DNA of 62,896 bases, the filler included, from Globobulimina sp. (Eukaryota): assembly GCA_003354225.1 (NCBI GenBank). It is 43 parts of 43 records of this genome, joined end to end, with 100 filler letters (N's around TTAATTAATTAA, not from the genome) between each part and the next. Parts side by side here need not be neighbours in the genome. Positions count along the whole stretch, not along the records: positions 10,263 to 11,628 come from PIVH01017877.1; 42 more parts are not named here. One strand, written 5' to 3'. Position 1 is the first letter of the stretch. Each line of letters opens with the position of its first letter. Positions 5,865 to 39,469 of the stretch are shown here, piece by piece. Below the pieces are notes generated by a model, which had not been told where the DNA came from, did no database searches, and saw only the letters and a list, made by a program, of their open reading frames with translations. The position numbers were made by a program, and so were the translations under genes.

Positions 5865-6965
5865 TCCGAGCATGGCGCAAAAATGTGCCTTCAGCACTTC
5901 ATTTGCTCCAAATAATGGGTTTCAAATTTATATCTCTGGCGATGACAATACCGAAACATTCTCAATTAAATCATTTAAGTTAACATATAGCATTACAGAG
6001 TCACCTACATTATCAACGACGGGTTATCCCACAAATGACCCTACAAATATACCCACAAACTATCCATCATTTATACCATCTGATAATCCCACCCAATATC
6101 CAACAAATCTCCCTACCAAATATCCATCAATGATTCCATCGATTAATCCCACCAAATATCCTACAAATTTCCCCACCAAATATCCAACAAATTCACCATC
6201 CGAATATCCAACGGAAATAACTGTTGCACCGATTAGTAAGTACAGGTTTTTGCATCGACGAGTGTGCATTTCTTAAATTACAATTAATTGTTTCTACTTT
6301 TTTGTACATAATCAGCTCTGCAGCCAACATTATTTACCACTCAAAGCGCAATAAGTTTGTCTCCAACACTGAATCCAACAATAAATCATGTTCAAAATGA
6401 AACGGAGCAAGTAAAGCAAGCACAAATTGATGAGACAACAGTTATTCCCACAGACAATATTGTGGATAACGATGATACCCTAAAGGGAAATAATTATTTT
6501 CCTATTTATGTTATAATTTTAGCAGTTATCGTGATGTGTATTGCATGCATAGGCATTGTGTGTGTATTTTATATGTACAGAAAGAAGAAGAAATCGATAA
6601 TGGAAGCATTTGGAACTAGAAACAAAATGGACATTACCCGAATGAATTCAACATCGGCTACGTTGCAGACGAATAAATTGGTAATGAGTCAATTTCAAAT
6701 TGAAAAGGAATTTGGTAATAATATTTTAATGGATGATGTGGTCTCTGATGTATTTGGATCGAATATGCGTATGAGCGCAGAGAGTGACTGTCACGAAACA
6801 GCCGGCGGTTTATATAGAGAGGGAAATGAAGTAAGGAATGCAATGATAGGAAGATGTGAGATTAAAAGTCAAGTAAATATTGAAATGATTCATATAAATA
6901 ATGTCCACGAGGATATGGTGATTGAAGAGGAGGGATACGATGCGACTACACCAAACAAATTATAA
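5865..6965 (+). CDS. PT-repeat single-pass membrane protein, 5'-partial; intron 6236-6315
   Basis: PTxxPTxxP stalk; an 80-nt GTAAGT..CAG intron joins the two ORFs in frame; TM IYVIILAVIVMCIACIGIVCVFY followed by RKKKK. Confidence 0.75.
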
Positions 6966-10262: not shown

Positions 10263-10451
10263 GATCAGCAGGAAGAGCCAAAAATTGGTGATCATGGGCA
10301 AATATTAAAAAATGATGAAATGACCGAGCATAACCAGTAACTGTGCGTGGTGCACGACTTGCAAGCACAGAGCTTTTTAACTGCGACTGAAGTGTCGCCA
10401 AATGAGGTGACAGAGCACCAGTAGAGGCCCAAATACCAGAAGAAAAAATCG
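10263..10451 (-). mobile_element. N-terminal exon of the same type of tyrosine recombinase, located downstream of the C-terminal half
   Basis: IFSSGIW...LKSSVLASRAPRTVTGYARSFHHF..ALPAD resembles the N-terminal helical region of eukaryotic DIRS-like YRs. It is preceded by a polypyrimidine-CAG splice acceptor at 10452. Confidence 0.7.
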
Positions 10452-10978
10452 CTGAAAGAAAAACATAATATGTATGGATAAATAAAAAGAGTGGGTAGGG
10501 AGGGTGGGCCATGAATAAGTAGAAATTAAGTAAACCGAAAAGCACACAGCAGGGAGAGAAATTACAAAGCGAGAGCGTCGTTGGTGTAAAATTGCCGTGA
10601 TTGCCCATACAGGGCAACAGAAAGCAGTCGGCTAATAGCCGACCAATCAGCGCTGGTGTTACCAGCGAACCAATCACAAAACAGCAGTGGCTACATGCCG
10701 CAACAAAGTGTACATTATTCCTACACAAGTTGCGGAATAAAACACTTTGTGGCTTTACTCCGCCATGCAAAAACAAGTGATAAAATAACATTTTATTCAA
10801 GATTAGATGATAGATGGAACGCGGCAATGAACGTACATAACTAAGCACCAACACGACAGAGTAACAATCAAATTCAAAGTATCAATTGAATGATAACGAA
10901 AACAATATAACATAGGTTTCAATGCAACAAAGAATATACAACAATGTGTTATGTTAAAGTACAAAACTATAAGTCTAT

Positions 10979-11628
10979 CTACAGGCCCATGAGTTTTGAA
11001 GTGACCAATTTAGTGCGACTGGATCGGCGAAGGTAACGATCCATACTGTGTTCAGAGCGCCATCTGCCGAACTCTCGAATTGCATTGGGATCAACACCAC
11101 GATCAACCAATGCGGTGGCACCTCCGGATCGAAAGGAATGAAGACCCAAAGTTTCAGGAGGAGCAACGTGGTGACGAGCGGCGCAAGACCGCACTAACGA
11201 TAAGTGATTACTATAAGACATGAGTTTCGAATTGAACTTAGTACCAGACACATTGCGAAAAAGAGATTGAGTAGAGGGAATCAAAATATTACCAATTTCA
11301 CAGTATCGGCGCAATGTGGCAACAGGACACAAAACAGATTGTGTAGCCGCAAGAAAAACATGGTCACCCTTCTTGTGTTGATCAGTTTTGCTCTGACGTA
11401 AAATCAAAAGTACTGAATCATCAGTGAACTCCACATCAGCAGCAGTCAGAGCAATTAACTCAGCCCAACGGAGACATCCAGCGAACATAAGTAATGAAGC
11501 AGTGAAAGTTCGCCAGGGCACCAAAGATAAATCGTCAGAACAATCGGCGGCTAAAGCATTGAGTAGTGTCGGTGACGCAGCAGACTTAGCACCGGCGTTT
11601 TGAGCGAAAAGCCGCTGAGCTCCTTCCA
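10979..11628 (-). mobile_element. Tyrosine recombinase catalytic domain, DIRS/Ngaro (YR retrotransposon)-type, 5'-partial
   Basis: EGAQRL, CLRWAEL (R), SKTDQ (K), LCPV, HSFRSGGAT (HxxR), GRWRS (W), DRY (Y). Confidence 0.9.
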
Positions 11629-11728: not shown

Positions 11729-13094
11729 TTGGATTTTTAGTCGGATTTCGTGACGGATTTCTGGTTGGATTTTGGGATGGATTTTTTGACGGGTTTTGTG
11801 TCGGAATTTTTATTGGATTTCGTGTTGGGTTTTGTGTTGGAGCAGATTGTGGTGATGCAGACGTTCCAGTGTATGCTGTTGGCGATGGAGTAGGTAATAT
11901 TGTTGGAAATGGGGTTGGCGACGGAGTTGGTTTTAACGTTTCTGTTCTCCAGGTTGCAGGGAAAGGATTTGGTACGACAACATCTGGTGTGTGCCAATAC
12001 GTTCTACCATTATATGAATATACCGCGGTGCAACCCGGACAACTCGCAGTTACACGATAAGTAAAACCACCAATCACATCCCATATTTTAACATTATCAT
12101 ATTGGAAATAATTTGCTTCACACGAAGCATGATACGAACTGGAATAACATTGCAGATTTACAACCCGTACATACAAATAAGTTCCATCAAAATGCCAAGC
12201 TGGTCCAATTCCGCCCGTTGTGGTCACAAAACCACCACTTAACGTAGCATCTGTACATAATGAATACCAACTTGCTGCATTACTGCAATCAAACGCAGAA
12301 ACATCCCATACATCCTCCGTTGTAGCAGTGACTTCCGCATAGGTCGACTGTGATAAATTCAACGTTGCCGCTGAAGAAGCCCACGTAGAATAAATATCCA
12401 CTGTAAACGTAGCAGTCGATGGATACTTAACAGCCAACACAATAAAGCTAGCCCTCGCTAACTGCATCTGATACGATCCAACTTCAAAATAATCGATTGC
12501 GCCCCAATAAGGCCGCCAGTACCAACCTGTATTAGTTATGCCAGCCACGCCTGGCCAGCCATGCATGGATATATTTTTGCTCTCATCGCCCCATTGTGAT
12601 ACAGTGGCAGTGGTATAGCCAGAAAATTGATCAGTACACGAACAATCACCATAGCCATTGTCTGGCAAAGCACACCAAGCAAATTTGAAATTGTCCGTCA
12701 AAGTCTGGTCACAGCCATTGTCATTCACGCCCGGCTGCACTAGATCTAAATATCCAATTTGCATCGATGGGCGCCATTCGCAGTGATATACATTCCAATC
12801 TACATTCAAACTGCACGCAGTATCGTCCACATTCCACCACGATCTATAACTGCCGATAATGGTTTTTTTATTGGTGCCGCTCACTGAGCCGTCCCAATCA
12901 TAAATGCTATAGATCTGAGAAGCGACGGTTTCATGATAATCGCCGCAATATGCACCACAATGATCGATGCCGATCACCAAAGTTGGATCCACGTTGGTCA
13001 ATGTAATTGCTTTCATTGCATTGATTCCTTGCGGTGTATAATGATCAGAATGGTCCAAATATTCGGTAATATGCGTGGTCGTGGCACCAATATC
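11729..13094 (-). CDS. Large secreted/surface protein fragment (TMEM2/CEMIP/G8-protein-like C-terminal region) with a PT-repeat stalk
   Basis: Open across the whole contig; IYDWDGSVSG...WW..D..C..W..Y.C motif; PTxNP repeats. Confidence 0.5.
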
Positions 13095-13198
13095 NNNNNN
13101 NNNNNNNNNNNNNNNNNNNNNNNNNNNNNNNNNNNNNNTTAATTAATTAANNNNNNNNNNNNNNNNNNNNNNNNNNNNNNNNNNNNNNNNNNNNCATC

Positions 13199-14560
13199 AT
13201 GTCCTCTAAGAAAGGAGGCTCCGCAAACGATGAGCCATCGAAGGAAGCAAAAGAGAAAGCAGAACATTTAAAACGTAGTATCGAGAAAATCAAAGGTCAA
13301 CGATTAAAATATTCACGCGATCGCCGTAAGAGAGCCGCCGAGTTAGAAATGAAATTACAAAACAATGATTATGAGACCGACGACAAGCGAGGGTTACAAA
13401 TCCAACATTTTTTAGATGAAAGCCACAGTTTAAGAGAACAACGTGCCGCCAAACAAAAAATCAAAGCCTCTGATTTTAAGATCATTAAAGTTATCGGCAA
13501 GGGCGCCTTTGGTGAAGTTCGTATCGTTCGCCATAAAGAAAATGGCAGGGTTTTTGCCATGAAAACTATGCTCAAAAAGATGATGATCGCTAAAAACCAA
13601 TTGGGTCATATCGTCGCTGAGCGAGATTTAATGTCTGATGCCGACAATCCATGGCTCGTTAAACTAATGTATGCCTTCCAGGTAATGTAATGTACGCAAA
13701 TTCGCAACATAAGAAGTGACCCCCTCCCTGCCTTGTACATGTACGTAGGACGCCACGTATCTTTATTTAGTGATGGAATATTGCGGTGGCGGAGATTTAA
13801 TGGGCTTATTGATCAAAAAAGACATTCTCTCAGAGTCGCATACTAGGTTTTATATGTCTGAGTTGGCCGCAGCTATCAATTACGTGCATGACCTCGGTTA
13901 CGTACATCGGGACTTAAAACCTGACAACGTGTTGATATCCAATGCGGGGCATATCCGTTTATCTGATTTCGGCTTAGCCAAATCGTTCCAGTCCAGCAAT
14001 GACTCGCAATTAGGAAATTGGCAGCAATTTGTCGCTACGCTCAAAGTGTGTAATACGTTATACATTTTTTTGCGATTTTGCGTATAATCTATAAACAAAA
14101 CAGGCATCGGATATTGAAAAAATGAAGAAAGATGACGCGAAAATATCGGATAAAAAGCGGGGCAAAAATACCAAGAATGGCAAACGCGATAAGGTGGATC
14201 GTAAGAAATTGTATTCCACGGTGGGTACACCGGATTACATTGCGATTGAAGTGTTGTATCAGAAGGGCTATGACAAGAAAGTGGATTGGTGGTCAATGGG
14301 CGTGATAATGTTTGAGTGTTTGGTGGGTTACGCTCCTTTTCATGCCAATGACCCGTTAGCTACATGTCGCAAAATCGTGCGCTATGAGCGGTATTTTAAG
14401 ATTCCGGCTGATATTAAGTTAACTAAACAGGCGGTGGATTTGATGAAGGCGTTGGTCTGTCCCGCTCATCGACGCATTGGTTGGGATAAGATCAGATCGC
14501 ATCCATGGTTTAAAAAGGTACAATGGAACGATTTGAAGGGACATAAACCTCCGTTTGTGC
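13199..14560 (+). CDS. NDR/LATS-family AGC kinase (STK38/Cbk1/Orb6-like), 3'-partial; introns 13682-13748 and 14046-14103
   Basis: MOB-binding N-terminus (ESHSLREQR), IGKGAFGEV, AERD, HRDLKPDN, SDFGL, insert, YSTVGTPDYIA, DWWSMG. Both GT-AG introns keep the frame. Confidence 0.92.
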
Positions 14561-38104: not shown

Positions 38105-39469
38105 CAAGACACAGTCTACACAGACAAATTACAGGGCAACATAAAGCAAAGGACATTAAGAAATACCCAATAACCACGGTCGCAACAATTGGTGACCCCG
38201 GAGTGATCAAAACATTCACAGGAAAGGTAAGAAATTATCATTATTAGTTTATATTTTGTTGTTTCAGTTACAAAACTGTTCAATCATATTCATTCATCAT
38301 GGTGAAATCACTCAGATTATCGCAGAAGCGTCGTCATAAGTTGAGAGATGACTTTAATCAAAGTATCAAAAAAGCTCAAGCTATTATGGATATAGAACAT
38401 GAAGTAACAGATATGAACAAAAGAATTATTGAAGCTCAAGTCATCCAGAAAGGACTCGAAAGAGATATTAAAGAATATTTGGAAATTGCAGATGACATTG
38501 CAGTGAGCATTGATGAAAAAATAGATAATATGTCAGATGAAGAAAAAGCAGAAGTTGCAAAAGAAGAGGATCAGGATGATATAAGTTTGAAAGGAGCTAA
38601 CAATTGCTTGGACAGATTAGAAATTTGGTTGATGGGAAATGTCTCAGGTAATAAACAAGTAGGACTTGCACCACAAGCCAGTGCAACTCCAAGTCAGTCT
38701 TCTCAAGGAGTACCTTCAGGCAAGCAATCACAAGAGGATGTTATAGCAGAAGCAAATAAAGTTCACACTCGTGCAAAGGTACAAGTGGAGTTAAATTTAG
38801 AAGAGGCAAAACAAAAGATGGATCGCGGCACAGGTCTGATGGGTACAAGGGACTTGAGTAGTTTATCAAGAGAATTAATGGTGTTGATCAAACAAATGGA
38901 GAAGAATGAAGAAAAAATGCGAGCAGCAAATGATCAGATGGAAACTGCCTATCAAACAGTGGAGGATATAGACAAGTACAGTAAATTTCAGGCAGTACAA
39001 AGGAAAGAGGAGAATTATTTGAGACAAGTATCACACCAAATATCTGCCTTGGAGACATTCAAAGAAGAAGTTGAGAATAAAAAGAAGAAACTTGAAGGAA
39101 ATTCAGAAGTTCAAGAACTTCAGCAACAGGTGCTACAGTTGTTAGCTGACAGAAATAATGGTAGGGAGACACCAACAGTGCCAGTACAGTCCCCAGATAC
39201 CAATCATACTACAATGTCTGTTCCTCTGCCAAAATTGAACATTGAAATATATGATGGCAACATTATGAAATGGCAAGAATTTTGGGATTCATTTGAATCA
39301 GCAGTACATAAAAATGACAGGTTGACAGCAATTGCAAAATTTAATTATTTGAAATCAAAATTAACAGGAGAAGCAGAAAATGCAATTTCTGGTTTGCAGT
39401 TTTCTAATGAAAATTATCCAGTGGCGATAAACTTATTGGAAAAAGATTTGGGAATAAACAGGCTATTAT
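38105..39469 (+). mobile_element. gag: 5' part of a BEL/Pao LTR retrotransposon: LTR end (..CA 38187), PBS 38190-38207, gag 38299-39469
   Basis: DUF1759 motif LPKLNIE.YDG...KWQEFWDSFES.VH....L..I.KFNYLKS.L.GEA..I.GL....NY..A..LL; PBS TGGTGACCCCGGAGTGAT resembles the complement of the tRNA-Trp 3' end. Confidence 0.9.

Follow-up and report, generated by a model that had tools for sequence, protein, structure and literature searches.

Two parts of one kind of recombinase gene in reversed order

How do two parts of one kind of tyrosine recombinase (YR) gene come to stand in reversed order on a single short contig? The question is raised by PIVH01017877.1 of the Globobulimina sp. assembly GCA_003354225.1, which forms positions 10263-11628 of the 62,896 bases analysed here (the window). 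The window strings together 43 separate contigs that are unrelated and ordered by length (1,364-1,366 bp), with spacers of the form N...TTAATTAATTAA...N between them, and the region in question is exactly one of these contigs, 1,366 bp long and bounded by artificial spacers. Its minus strand carries, in this order, a YR C-terminal part, a 526-bp spacer, an acceptor-like site and a YR N-terminal part. The two gene parts belong to one sub-family and lie head to tail, 526 bp apart, with no other recognised coding sequence between them. The best reading of this arrangement, with a probability of about 0.55, is a real chromosomal head-to-tail junction between two same-orientation copies of one YR element family of the DIRS-order type. 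The copy that contributes the C-terminal part is referred to below as upstream or copy 1, the other as downstream or copy 2.

The upstream copy supplies the catalytic half of the enzyme, open over 215 codons and ending in a TAG stop (Table 1). Its translation, P0001, matches the Phage_integrase family (PF00589) over residues 37-201 of 215 (E 1.6e-9; 38.2 bits vs. a cutoff of 27.1), and no other Pfam family at E up to 10, DUF3504 included. In an alignment with nine full-length relatives, the catalytic R, K, H-x-x-R, W and Y occupy invariant columns; in the numbering of the 320-aa relative P0003, with which P0001 shares 58% identity, they are R158, K185, H268, R271, W294 and Y303. The best match is P0160, with 129 of 215 residues identical, and a PDB sequence search found nothing. 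An earlier reading of the DNA by itself (the sequence-only reading) had described an intact catalytic half with the R-K-HxxR-W-Y signature on the minus strand, and the open frame, the PF00589 match and the invariant columns bear this out.

The downstream copy supplies a 63-residue peptide, P0002, encoded within 10264-10451. P0002 aligns to the N-terminal SAM-like domain of the same YR family as P0001, i.e., to YR N-termini of the same sub-family, as had been proposed. By itself it has no Pfam match; over the matching region, the relatives P0003 and P0005 show PF13495 below Pfam's cutoff. The best match is again P0160 (26/43 identical), the protein that is also closest to the C-terminal part. 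Between the two parts 50-52 residues are missing when measured against eight of the nine full-length comparators, the ninth giving 63 with a shorter local alignment. The gap had been estimated at 50-60 codons, in agreement with these values.

Reverse transcriptase (RT), RNase H and gag were searched for in every frame of the 1,366-bp contig, with Pfam and in tblastn with the open reading frames (ORFs) of seven related loci (described below), and none was found. One tblastn match, of the RT of locus L004 to 10427-10284 (E 0.005), was rejected as noise, being out of the YR frame and crossing a stop. The earlier statement that there is no gag, RT or RNase H thus holds for the contig as assembled. 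It covers the 526 bp upstream of copy 2, in which no RT is present; the sequence upstream of copy 1 is beyond the contig.

A conserved acceptor-like site before the recombinase exon

The spacer extends from 10978 to 10453. Its first ~190 bp after the stop codon are AT-rich (GC 0.28-0.31) and are followed by a GC-richer part (0.47-0.50). Read in the frame of the downstream YR, the spacer has no stop for 143 codons upstream of it (window 10453-10881, minus), a length that 79 of 20,000 Markov simulations reach. This open frame has no credible Pfam match and no homologue, and the spacer as a whole has nothing credible in Pfam at E up to 10. The spacer is therefore treated as non-coding, as it had been in the sequence-only reading (~530 bp), and the open frame itself is left unexplained.

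A polypyrimidine tract and CAG, ending at 10452, directly precede the N-terminal part, at the place where a splice acceptor had been suggested. The site was compared in the six loci that have a matched N-terminus, the window contig included. In all six (the contig, L002, L003, L004, L005 and L007) a conserved Trp codon ends 23-24 nt downstream of the pyrimidine-CAG. The residues encoded upstream of the CAG vary among loci while the pyrimidine-CAG pattern is constant, and a splice site thus fits better than a coding constraint. Since the putative acceptor is conserved in 6/6 elements, the downstream part appears to be a genuine YR exon start. The comparison suggests that the YR of the whole DIRS-order group may be read from a spliced message. 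A literature search found no paper stating a conserved acceptor-like start of the YR exon.

Relatives of the recombinase

A homologue search among 1.84 billion representatives returned 6,326 proteins at E <= 0.001, 608 at <= 1e-10 and four at <= 1e-30. The 30 best matches are all <= 381 aa, and there is thus no fused RT-YR among close relatives. The nearest relatives are intact YRs of 314-331 aa at 44-60% identity (P0160, P0003, P0159 and P0005), each on a single contig of 830-1,451 bp; a further relative, P0004, has a broken C-terminus. This closest group of divergent paralogues on separate short contigs numbers at least five distinct intact YRs, as would be expected of a living element family. 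The shortness of the contigs was considered as a hint of small units and was rejected: contigs of the window's clade measure 1,152-1,749 bp, but in six of eight control clusters from the other clade the longest contig is also <= 2.6 kb.

A scan of metagenomes (116 pattern matches) gave one relative, L001, whose 1,348 bp include a complete YR (36% identity) with only 61 nt upstream of it; a scan of viral_contigs gave 10 pattern matches and no relative. More context is available at seven loci in records titled as bacterial metagenome-assembled genomes (MAGs), whose YRs show 25-31% identity (homology E 1e-11 to 1e-36 vs. P0003). All seven (7/7) have an RT-domain ORF on the same strand, upstream of the YR, and the wider family is thus the YR of DIRS-order retroelements. 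Additional domains are RNase H with a Dam-like methyltransferase in L002, RNase H in L004 and L007, a C5 methylase in L006 and ALOG in L008.

Several of these loci have unusual structures. L004 displays a 5,772-bp unit with a gag-like ORF, RT/RNase H and YR, and a 91-nt exact direct repeat (L004:322-412 and 6094-6184) at the contig end. This full-length relative wraps round past its YR to a copy of its own 5′ region, as a tandem, a circle or a terminal repeat. L003 (106-9316) has an RT and YR on the plus strand and then, on the minus strand, the mirror image of this pair, YR before RT; the two 1,018-aa RT ORFs are identical. The locus is either a tail-to-tail pair of elements or an assembly artefact in the form of a palindrome. 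L006 (2279-6712) has one open frame of 1,478 aa that joins a C5 cytosine methylase domain, an RT domain and the YR C-terminus, and in L008 (1468-3174) an ORF adjoining the RT has an ALOG domain (PF04852) before a weak YR match. Among distant YR homologues, fusions to other domains are found, i.e., to Sacsin in P0104 (1,081 aa) and to a CCHC zinc knuckle in P0060 (558 aa).

In a quick maximum-likelihood tree of 82 rows, drawn without Crypton references, the window YR falls in a clade of eight with a support of 99 (window, P0003, P0159, P0160, P0005, L001, P0020 and P0075). Of the six RT-linked rows, five fall in the opposite part of the tree (support 92/97), and the sixth, L006, is a long branch at the root of the drawing. 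The label "DIRS-type" that the element had been given is supported by the RT found upstream in all seven relatives with context; the window YR itself, however, sits in a separate, well-supported clade where no member has known context.

Public contigs across the join

X1, the only public run in which the sequence is present, contains 0.79 of the sampled words of the contig, and two other runs of the same sample contain none; the comparison was made with assembled contigs. Four X1 pieces correspond to the contig. One is a diverged copy (6 differences in 57 nt) that extends 156 nt past 10263. Another matches 10306-10486 and then continues, after a 4-nt insertion, with 8 more matching letters (to ~10494), and a third covers 11233-11503. 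The fourth, 887 nt long, matches 10512-11261 (750 nt, 1 difference), followed by 125 letters unlike the window, and its opposite end is adapter sequence. Of this competing continuation, the last 30 letters are found nowhere else in the window, and their resemblance to the window's own path is no better than that of random sequence (3268/5000 shuffles reach the score). The word depth of the matching pieces is 4.0 to 5.1, low and similar on the two sides (4.0 vs. 4.8-5.1).

X1 neither confirms nor refutes the join; from its contigs, 10512/10511 looks like some sort of boundary. Departure exactly at 10512 would be expected of an element terminus that adjoins other flanking DNA, or of an element with another internal structure.

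Interpretation of the locus

The gene parts, their common sub-family, the lack of other genes between them and the conserved acceptor are the observed basis for a head-to-tail junction. Both halves are intact, share P0160 as closest relative and together make a complete YR minus the 50-52 residues. The junction is further favoured by the point at which the public contig departs, 10512, by the C-rich motif beside it, which recurs upstream of the L001 YR, by the mobility of the relatives, with RT upstream at 7/7 loci and the wrap-round of L004, and by the preference for its own copies that is reported for DIRS-1 (PMC7192593). In such a junction copy 1 would contribute its YR C-terminus and a 467-bp 3′ region (AATAAA, then the CCAAT-box region), and copy 2 would begin at ~10511, with 60 bp, the conserved acceptor and the YR N-terminus. 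A YR produces direct repeats of this kind by inserting a circular copy into, or next to, a copy of the same element that is already present. The join would then be physically real and 10512/10511 an element boundary, and a promoter, a leader, an intron and some form of mobility may be proposed for the copies.

Two forms of the junction are about equally probable. In one, a compact RT-less unit of ~1.5 kb would be present in tandem, composed of a promoter, a short leader/intron, the YR gene and a 3′ region, and would be mobilised as DNA by its own YR or in trans by RT-bearing relatives. In the other, the contig would result from the insertion of a full-length RT-bearing element into another copy, 60 bp before that copy's YR exon, and no RT-less unit would exist; this form also explains the boundary at 10512. 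Of the head-to-tail array of an RT-less YR element that had been put forward, the head-to-tail order stands as the best reading, with one sub-family and nothing else coding between the parts. That the unit lacks RT does not follow from it, since an element inserted 60 bp upstream of another copy's YR exon gives the same contig.

Several observations weigh against a head-to-tail junction. No X1 contig crosses 10487-10511, and a competing continuation starts from 10512 instead. A 206-aa ORF that spans the join has no homologue at E <= 0.01 among 429 candidates, with 5.8 billion proteins searched; together with the missing X1 piece, this leaves the present contig as the only witness of the join. 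The low and similar depths do not point to a multi-copy array, the contig shows neither terminal nor split repeats, and no second copy of any part of the contig is present elsewhere in the window. As the eight members of the YR clade are all of unknown context, the compact RT-less form has no support from relatives.

The same hole in X1 is what would be seen if the join were an artefact, in which the assembler, or a chimeric amplification molecule, linked the 3′ end of a YR element to the region upstream of another copy's YR exon. In the genome other DNA would then follow the 3′ region, and RT/RNase H would precede the YR exon. This account is possible, if doubtful. One X1 contig does run from the YR C-terminus through the spacer into 125 unlike letters from 10512, and the piece over the N-terminal part stops near 10494 and differs by its 4-nt insertion; the X1 contigs contain untrimmed adapter at a depth of only ~4-5, and the assembly is very fragmented (43 contigs of ~1.36 kb). 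However, low coverage alone can account for a hole of 25 nt, and the competing contig, ending in adapter at its other end, is itself an imperfect witness. With a C-rich motif that recurs upstream of the L001 YR, the joining 25 nt also fit the downstream part, and the two halves share sub-family and orientation. An assembly loop of another kind, through split direct repeats, had been suggested as well and is unlikely, since the contig has no long direct or inverted repeat, the largest direct repeat being 21 nt at 71%.

With AATAAA, two CCAAT boxes and an ATG in that order, the spacer resembles a gene end with a promoter after it, and both ORF parts are intact, as in a tandemly duplicated host gene, i.e., a domesticated recombinase with its own promoter and terminator. 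Such a gene is nevertheless very improbable here: its closest relatives form a set of many divergent paralogues, each on a short contig of its own and one with a broken C-terminus (P0004), the wider family resides in RT-bearing elements at 7/7 loci, and the GC of the contig, 0.43, differs from that of most window contigs (0.27-0.44, most ~0.33).

The idea that the contig ends nearly close into a unit of ~1.5 kb, and that the contig may be an excised minicircle, found no support in the analysis. The sum of a YR gene of ~985 bp and the 526-bp spacer is ~1,515 bp, and the near-closure follows arithmetically from the size of the piece: any 1,366-bp piece over two adjacent YR genes looks circularly permuted, and the near-closure is thus no evidence of a circle. 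Nor is the length of 1,366 bp informative, since it is set by the length-sorted window; features that seem to run across contigs, or to be of matching length in the window, are artefacts of its layout. A ~1.5 kb extrachromosomal circle, either an excised or a replicative YR-only minicircle opened by the assembler inside the YR gene, would account for the complementary gene parts, and YR elements are thought to pass through circles (excerpts of PMC3212892 and PMC7192593). The complementarity is explained by the size of the contig, however. Self-comparison and a repeat search show no terminal overlap of the contig ends, no public contig links 10263 with 11628, the depth (~4-5) is low and similar to that of the diverged copy, and there is a branch at 10512. 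L001, a relative of similar size, also lacks a terminal overlap. A circle is therefore scarcely credible.

A more elaborate form of the head-to-tail junction can be imagined, and is improbable as a whole. The element would be compact (~1.5 kb), its only gene a retroelement-type YR that has kept its conserved spliced exon start, with gag and RT lost. On its 3′ side the unit would end in a promoter-like region, with the boundary (10512/10511) inside an ATG, and full expression of the YR would need a junction of unit with unit, as in a tandem array or a circle. Junction promoters are known from the circles of bacterial insertion sequences. Junction-dependent expression is not known to have been described for eukaryotic YR elements.

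Relation to known mobile elements

The locus shares several traits with the Ngaro and DIRS-order elements (DIRS1-like, PAT-like). These are a YR of ~320-345 aa in which a SAM-like N-terminal domain precedes an R-K-H-R-W-Y catalytic domain, homologues (25-31% identity) that at 7/7 loci lie downstream of RT, in some cases with RNase H or a methyltransferase as well, a YR exon that starts at the same conserved acceptor-like site, and a YR followed by a region that resembles the element's 5′/promoter region, as in L004. It differs in that the contig has no RT, RNase H or gag, and has another YR 526 bp upstream of the YR start. The terminal repeats of the order, as described in the excerpted text of PMC4157794, are inverted repeats with an internal complementary region or split direct repeats (A1-B1-A2-B2). 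The contig shows neither type, and partner repeats could lie outside it. The YR clade of the window also stands apart from the RT-linked loci in the quick tree, where L006 is a long branch.

If the unit is compact and RT-less, it would resemble the Cryptons as they are described in excerpts of Kojima and Jurka (2011, PMC3212892), in having one YR gene, no long terminal repeats, a possible intron and a presumed circle formed by its own YR. It would differ from them in that its relatives with context are retroelements, and in that a unit of 1.5 kb is very compact. Cryptons are further recognised by defined termini with short direct repeats (4-6 bp) that recur in several copies. The same excerpts use a DUF3504 match to separate CryptonA from the YRs of DIRS and Ngaro, and the window YR has none at E up to 10. 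By its YR sequence and conserved acceptor the element probably belongs with the DIRS-order YRs, although the RT that defines the order is not visible on the contig. An RT-less unit would thus be Crypton-like by definition, though not by the sequence test for CryptonA.

DIRS-1 of Dictyostelium inserts preferentially into its own copies, and its RT copies the RNA of an RT-less construct in trans, according to excerpts of PMC7192593; it is in these terms a precedent for both nested insertion and an RT-less derivative. A literature search, which did not extend to supplements, found no paper describing foraminiferal YR elements or DIRS-type units that lack RT. Should the join prove real and the unit RT-less, a DIRS-order-type recombinase would persist as a minimal DNA-only element in a foraminifer-like protist. 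Such an element would directly exemplify the passage between YR retrotransposons and Crypton-like transposons, which Kojima and Jurka had left as an open question (PMC3212892). If the contig is a nested insertion or a chimera, it is ordinary.

Further features of the contig and the window

The features of the contig are collected in Table 1, together with the acceptor-like sites of the relatives.

Table 1. Features of the contig (window positions) and acceptor-like sites in related loci (positions in each locus).
Feature	Position	Strand	Basis and remarks
YR C-terminal 215 codons (catalytic domain), P0001	10982..11626	-	Translation, PF00589, catalytic columns; 5′ side cut by contig end
TAG stop codon of upstream YR copy	10979..10981	-	Translation
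20-nt motif just past the stop, weakly common to the same position in L001	10952..10971	-	31/1,000 shuffles reach the score; weak alone
AATAAA, possible polyadenylation signal	10792..10797	-	182 nt past the stop, in the AT-rich half
Imperfect nested inverted repeats, arms of 12 nt at 92% and 10 nt at 90%	10695..10753	.	Repeat search
Two CCAAT/ATTGG boxes (10643-10647, 10670-10674) in a 13-nt direct repeat spaced 27 nt; possibly promoter-like	10637..10676	-	In the GC-richer half
Candidate 43-nt leader exon: ATG (10608), 14 codons and 1 nt, GTAATT donor-like end	10566..10608	-	Spliced reading would be in frame to the acceptor at 10452
Candidate 114-nt intron, GTAATT ... polypyrimidine-CAG	10452..10565	-	Acceptor: conservation; donor: proposed from the sequence
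In-frame ATG, possible unspliced start 20 codons before the conserved N-terminus	10510..10512	-	10512 is the last base common to the public contig and the window
25-nt stretch linking the spacer to the downstream copy	10487..10511	.	In no X1 contig; pieces end at 10486 and start at 10512
C-rich motif ~40-55 nt upstream of the acceptor, also present at the matching place upstream of the L001 YR	10491..10508	-	50/2,000 shuffles reach the score; weak
Polypyrimidine tract and CAG, 3′ splice-site-like, directly before the YR frame	10452..10463	-	Sequence; position conserved
YR N-terminal 63 codons (SAM-like core-binding domain), P0002	10264..10451	-	Alignment to relatives; cut by contig end
Acceptor-like sites in relatives (approximate)	L002:2730-2760, L003:3490-3510, L004:4850-4870, L005:7940-7960, L007:2355-2375		Polypyrimidine-CAG before the conserved Trp

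A protein kinase gene in the window (13196-14559, plus strand) is made of three ORF pieces, apparently separated by two short introns. These putative introns start with GTAATG and GTAATA and end with TAG and CAG, and they were used as the local intron style.

A Pfam search of the other 42 contigs of the window found no YR or RT. These contigs carry ordinary eukaryotic gene pieces (kinases, an ABC transporter, MCM10, ankyrin). The neighbouring contig is filled by an open frame of 455 codons (window 11730-13094, minus), which has no Pfam family and a Pro/Thr/Asn-rich repeat region at its end. The only other mobile-element-like piece seen in the window is a DUF1759 domain in an open frame of 407 aa (38248-39468, plus strand); this domain is common in the gag-like proteins of LTR (long terminal repeat) retroelements.

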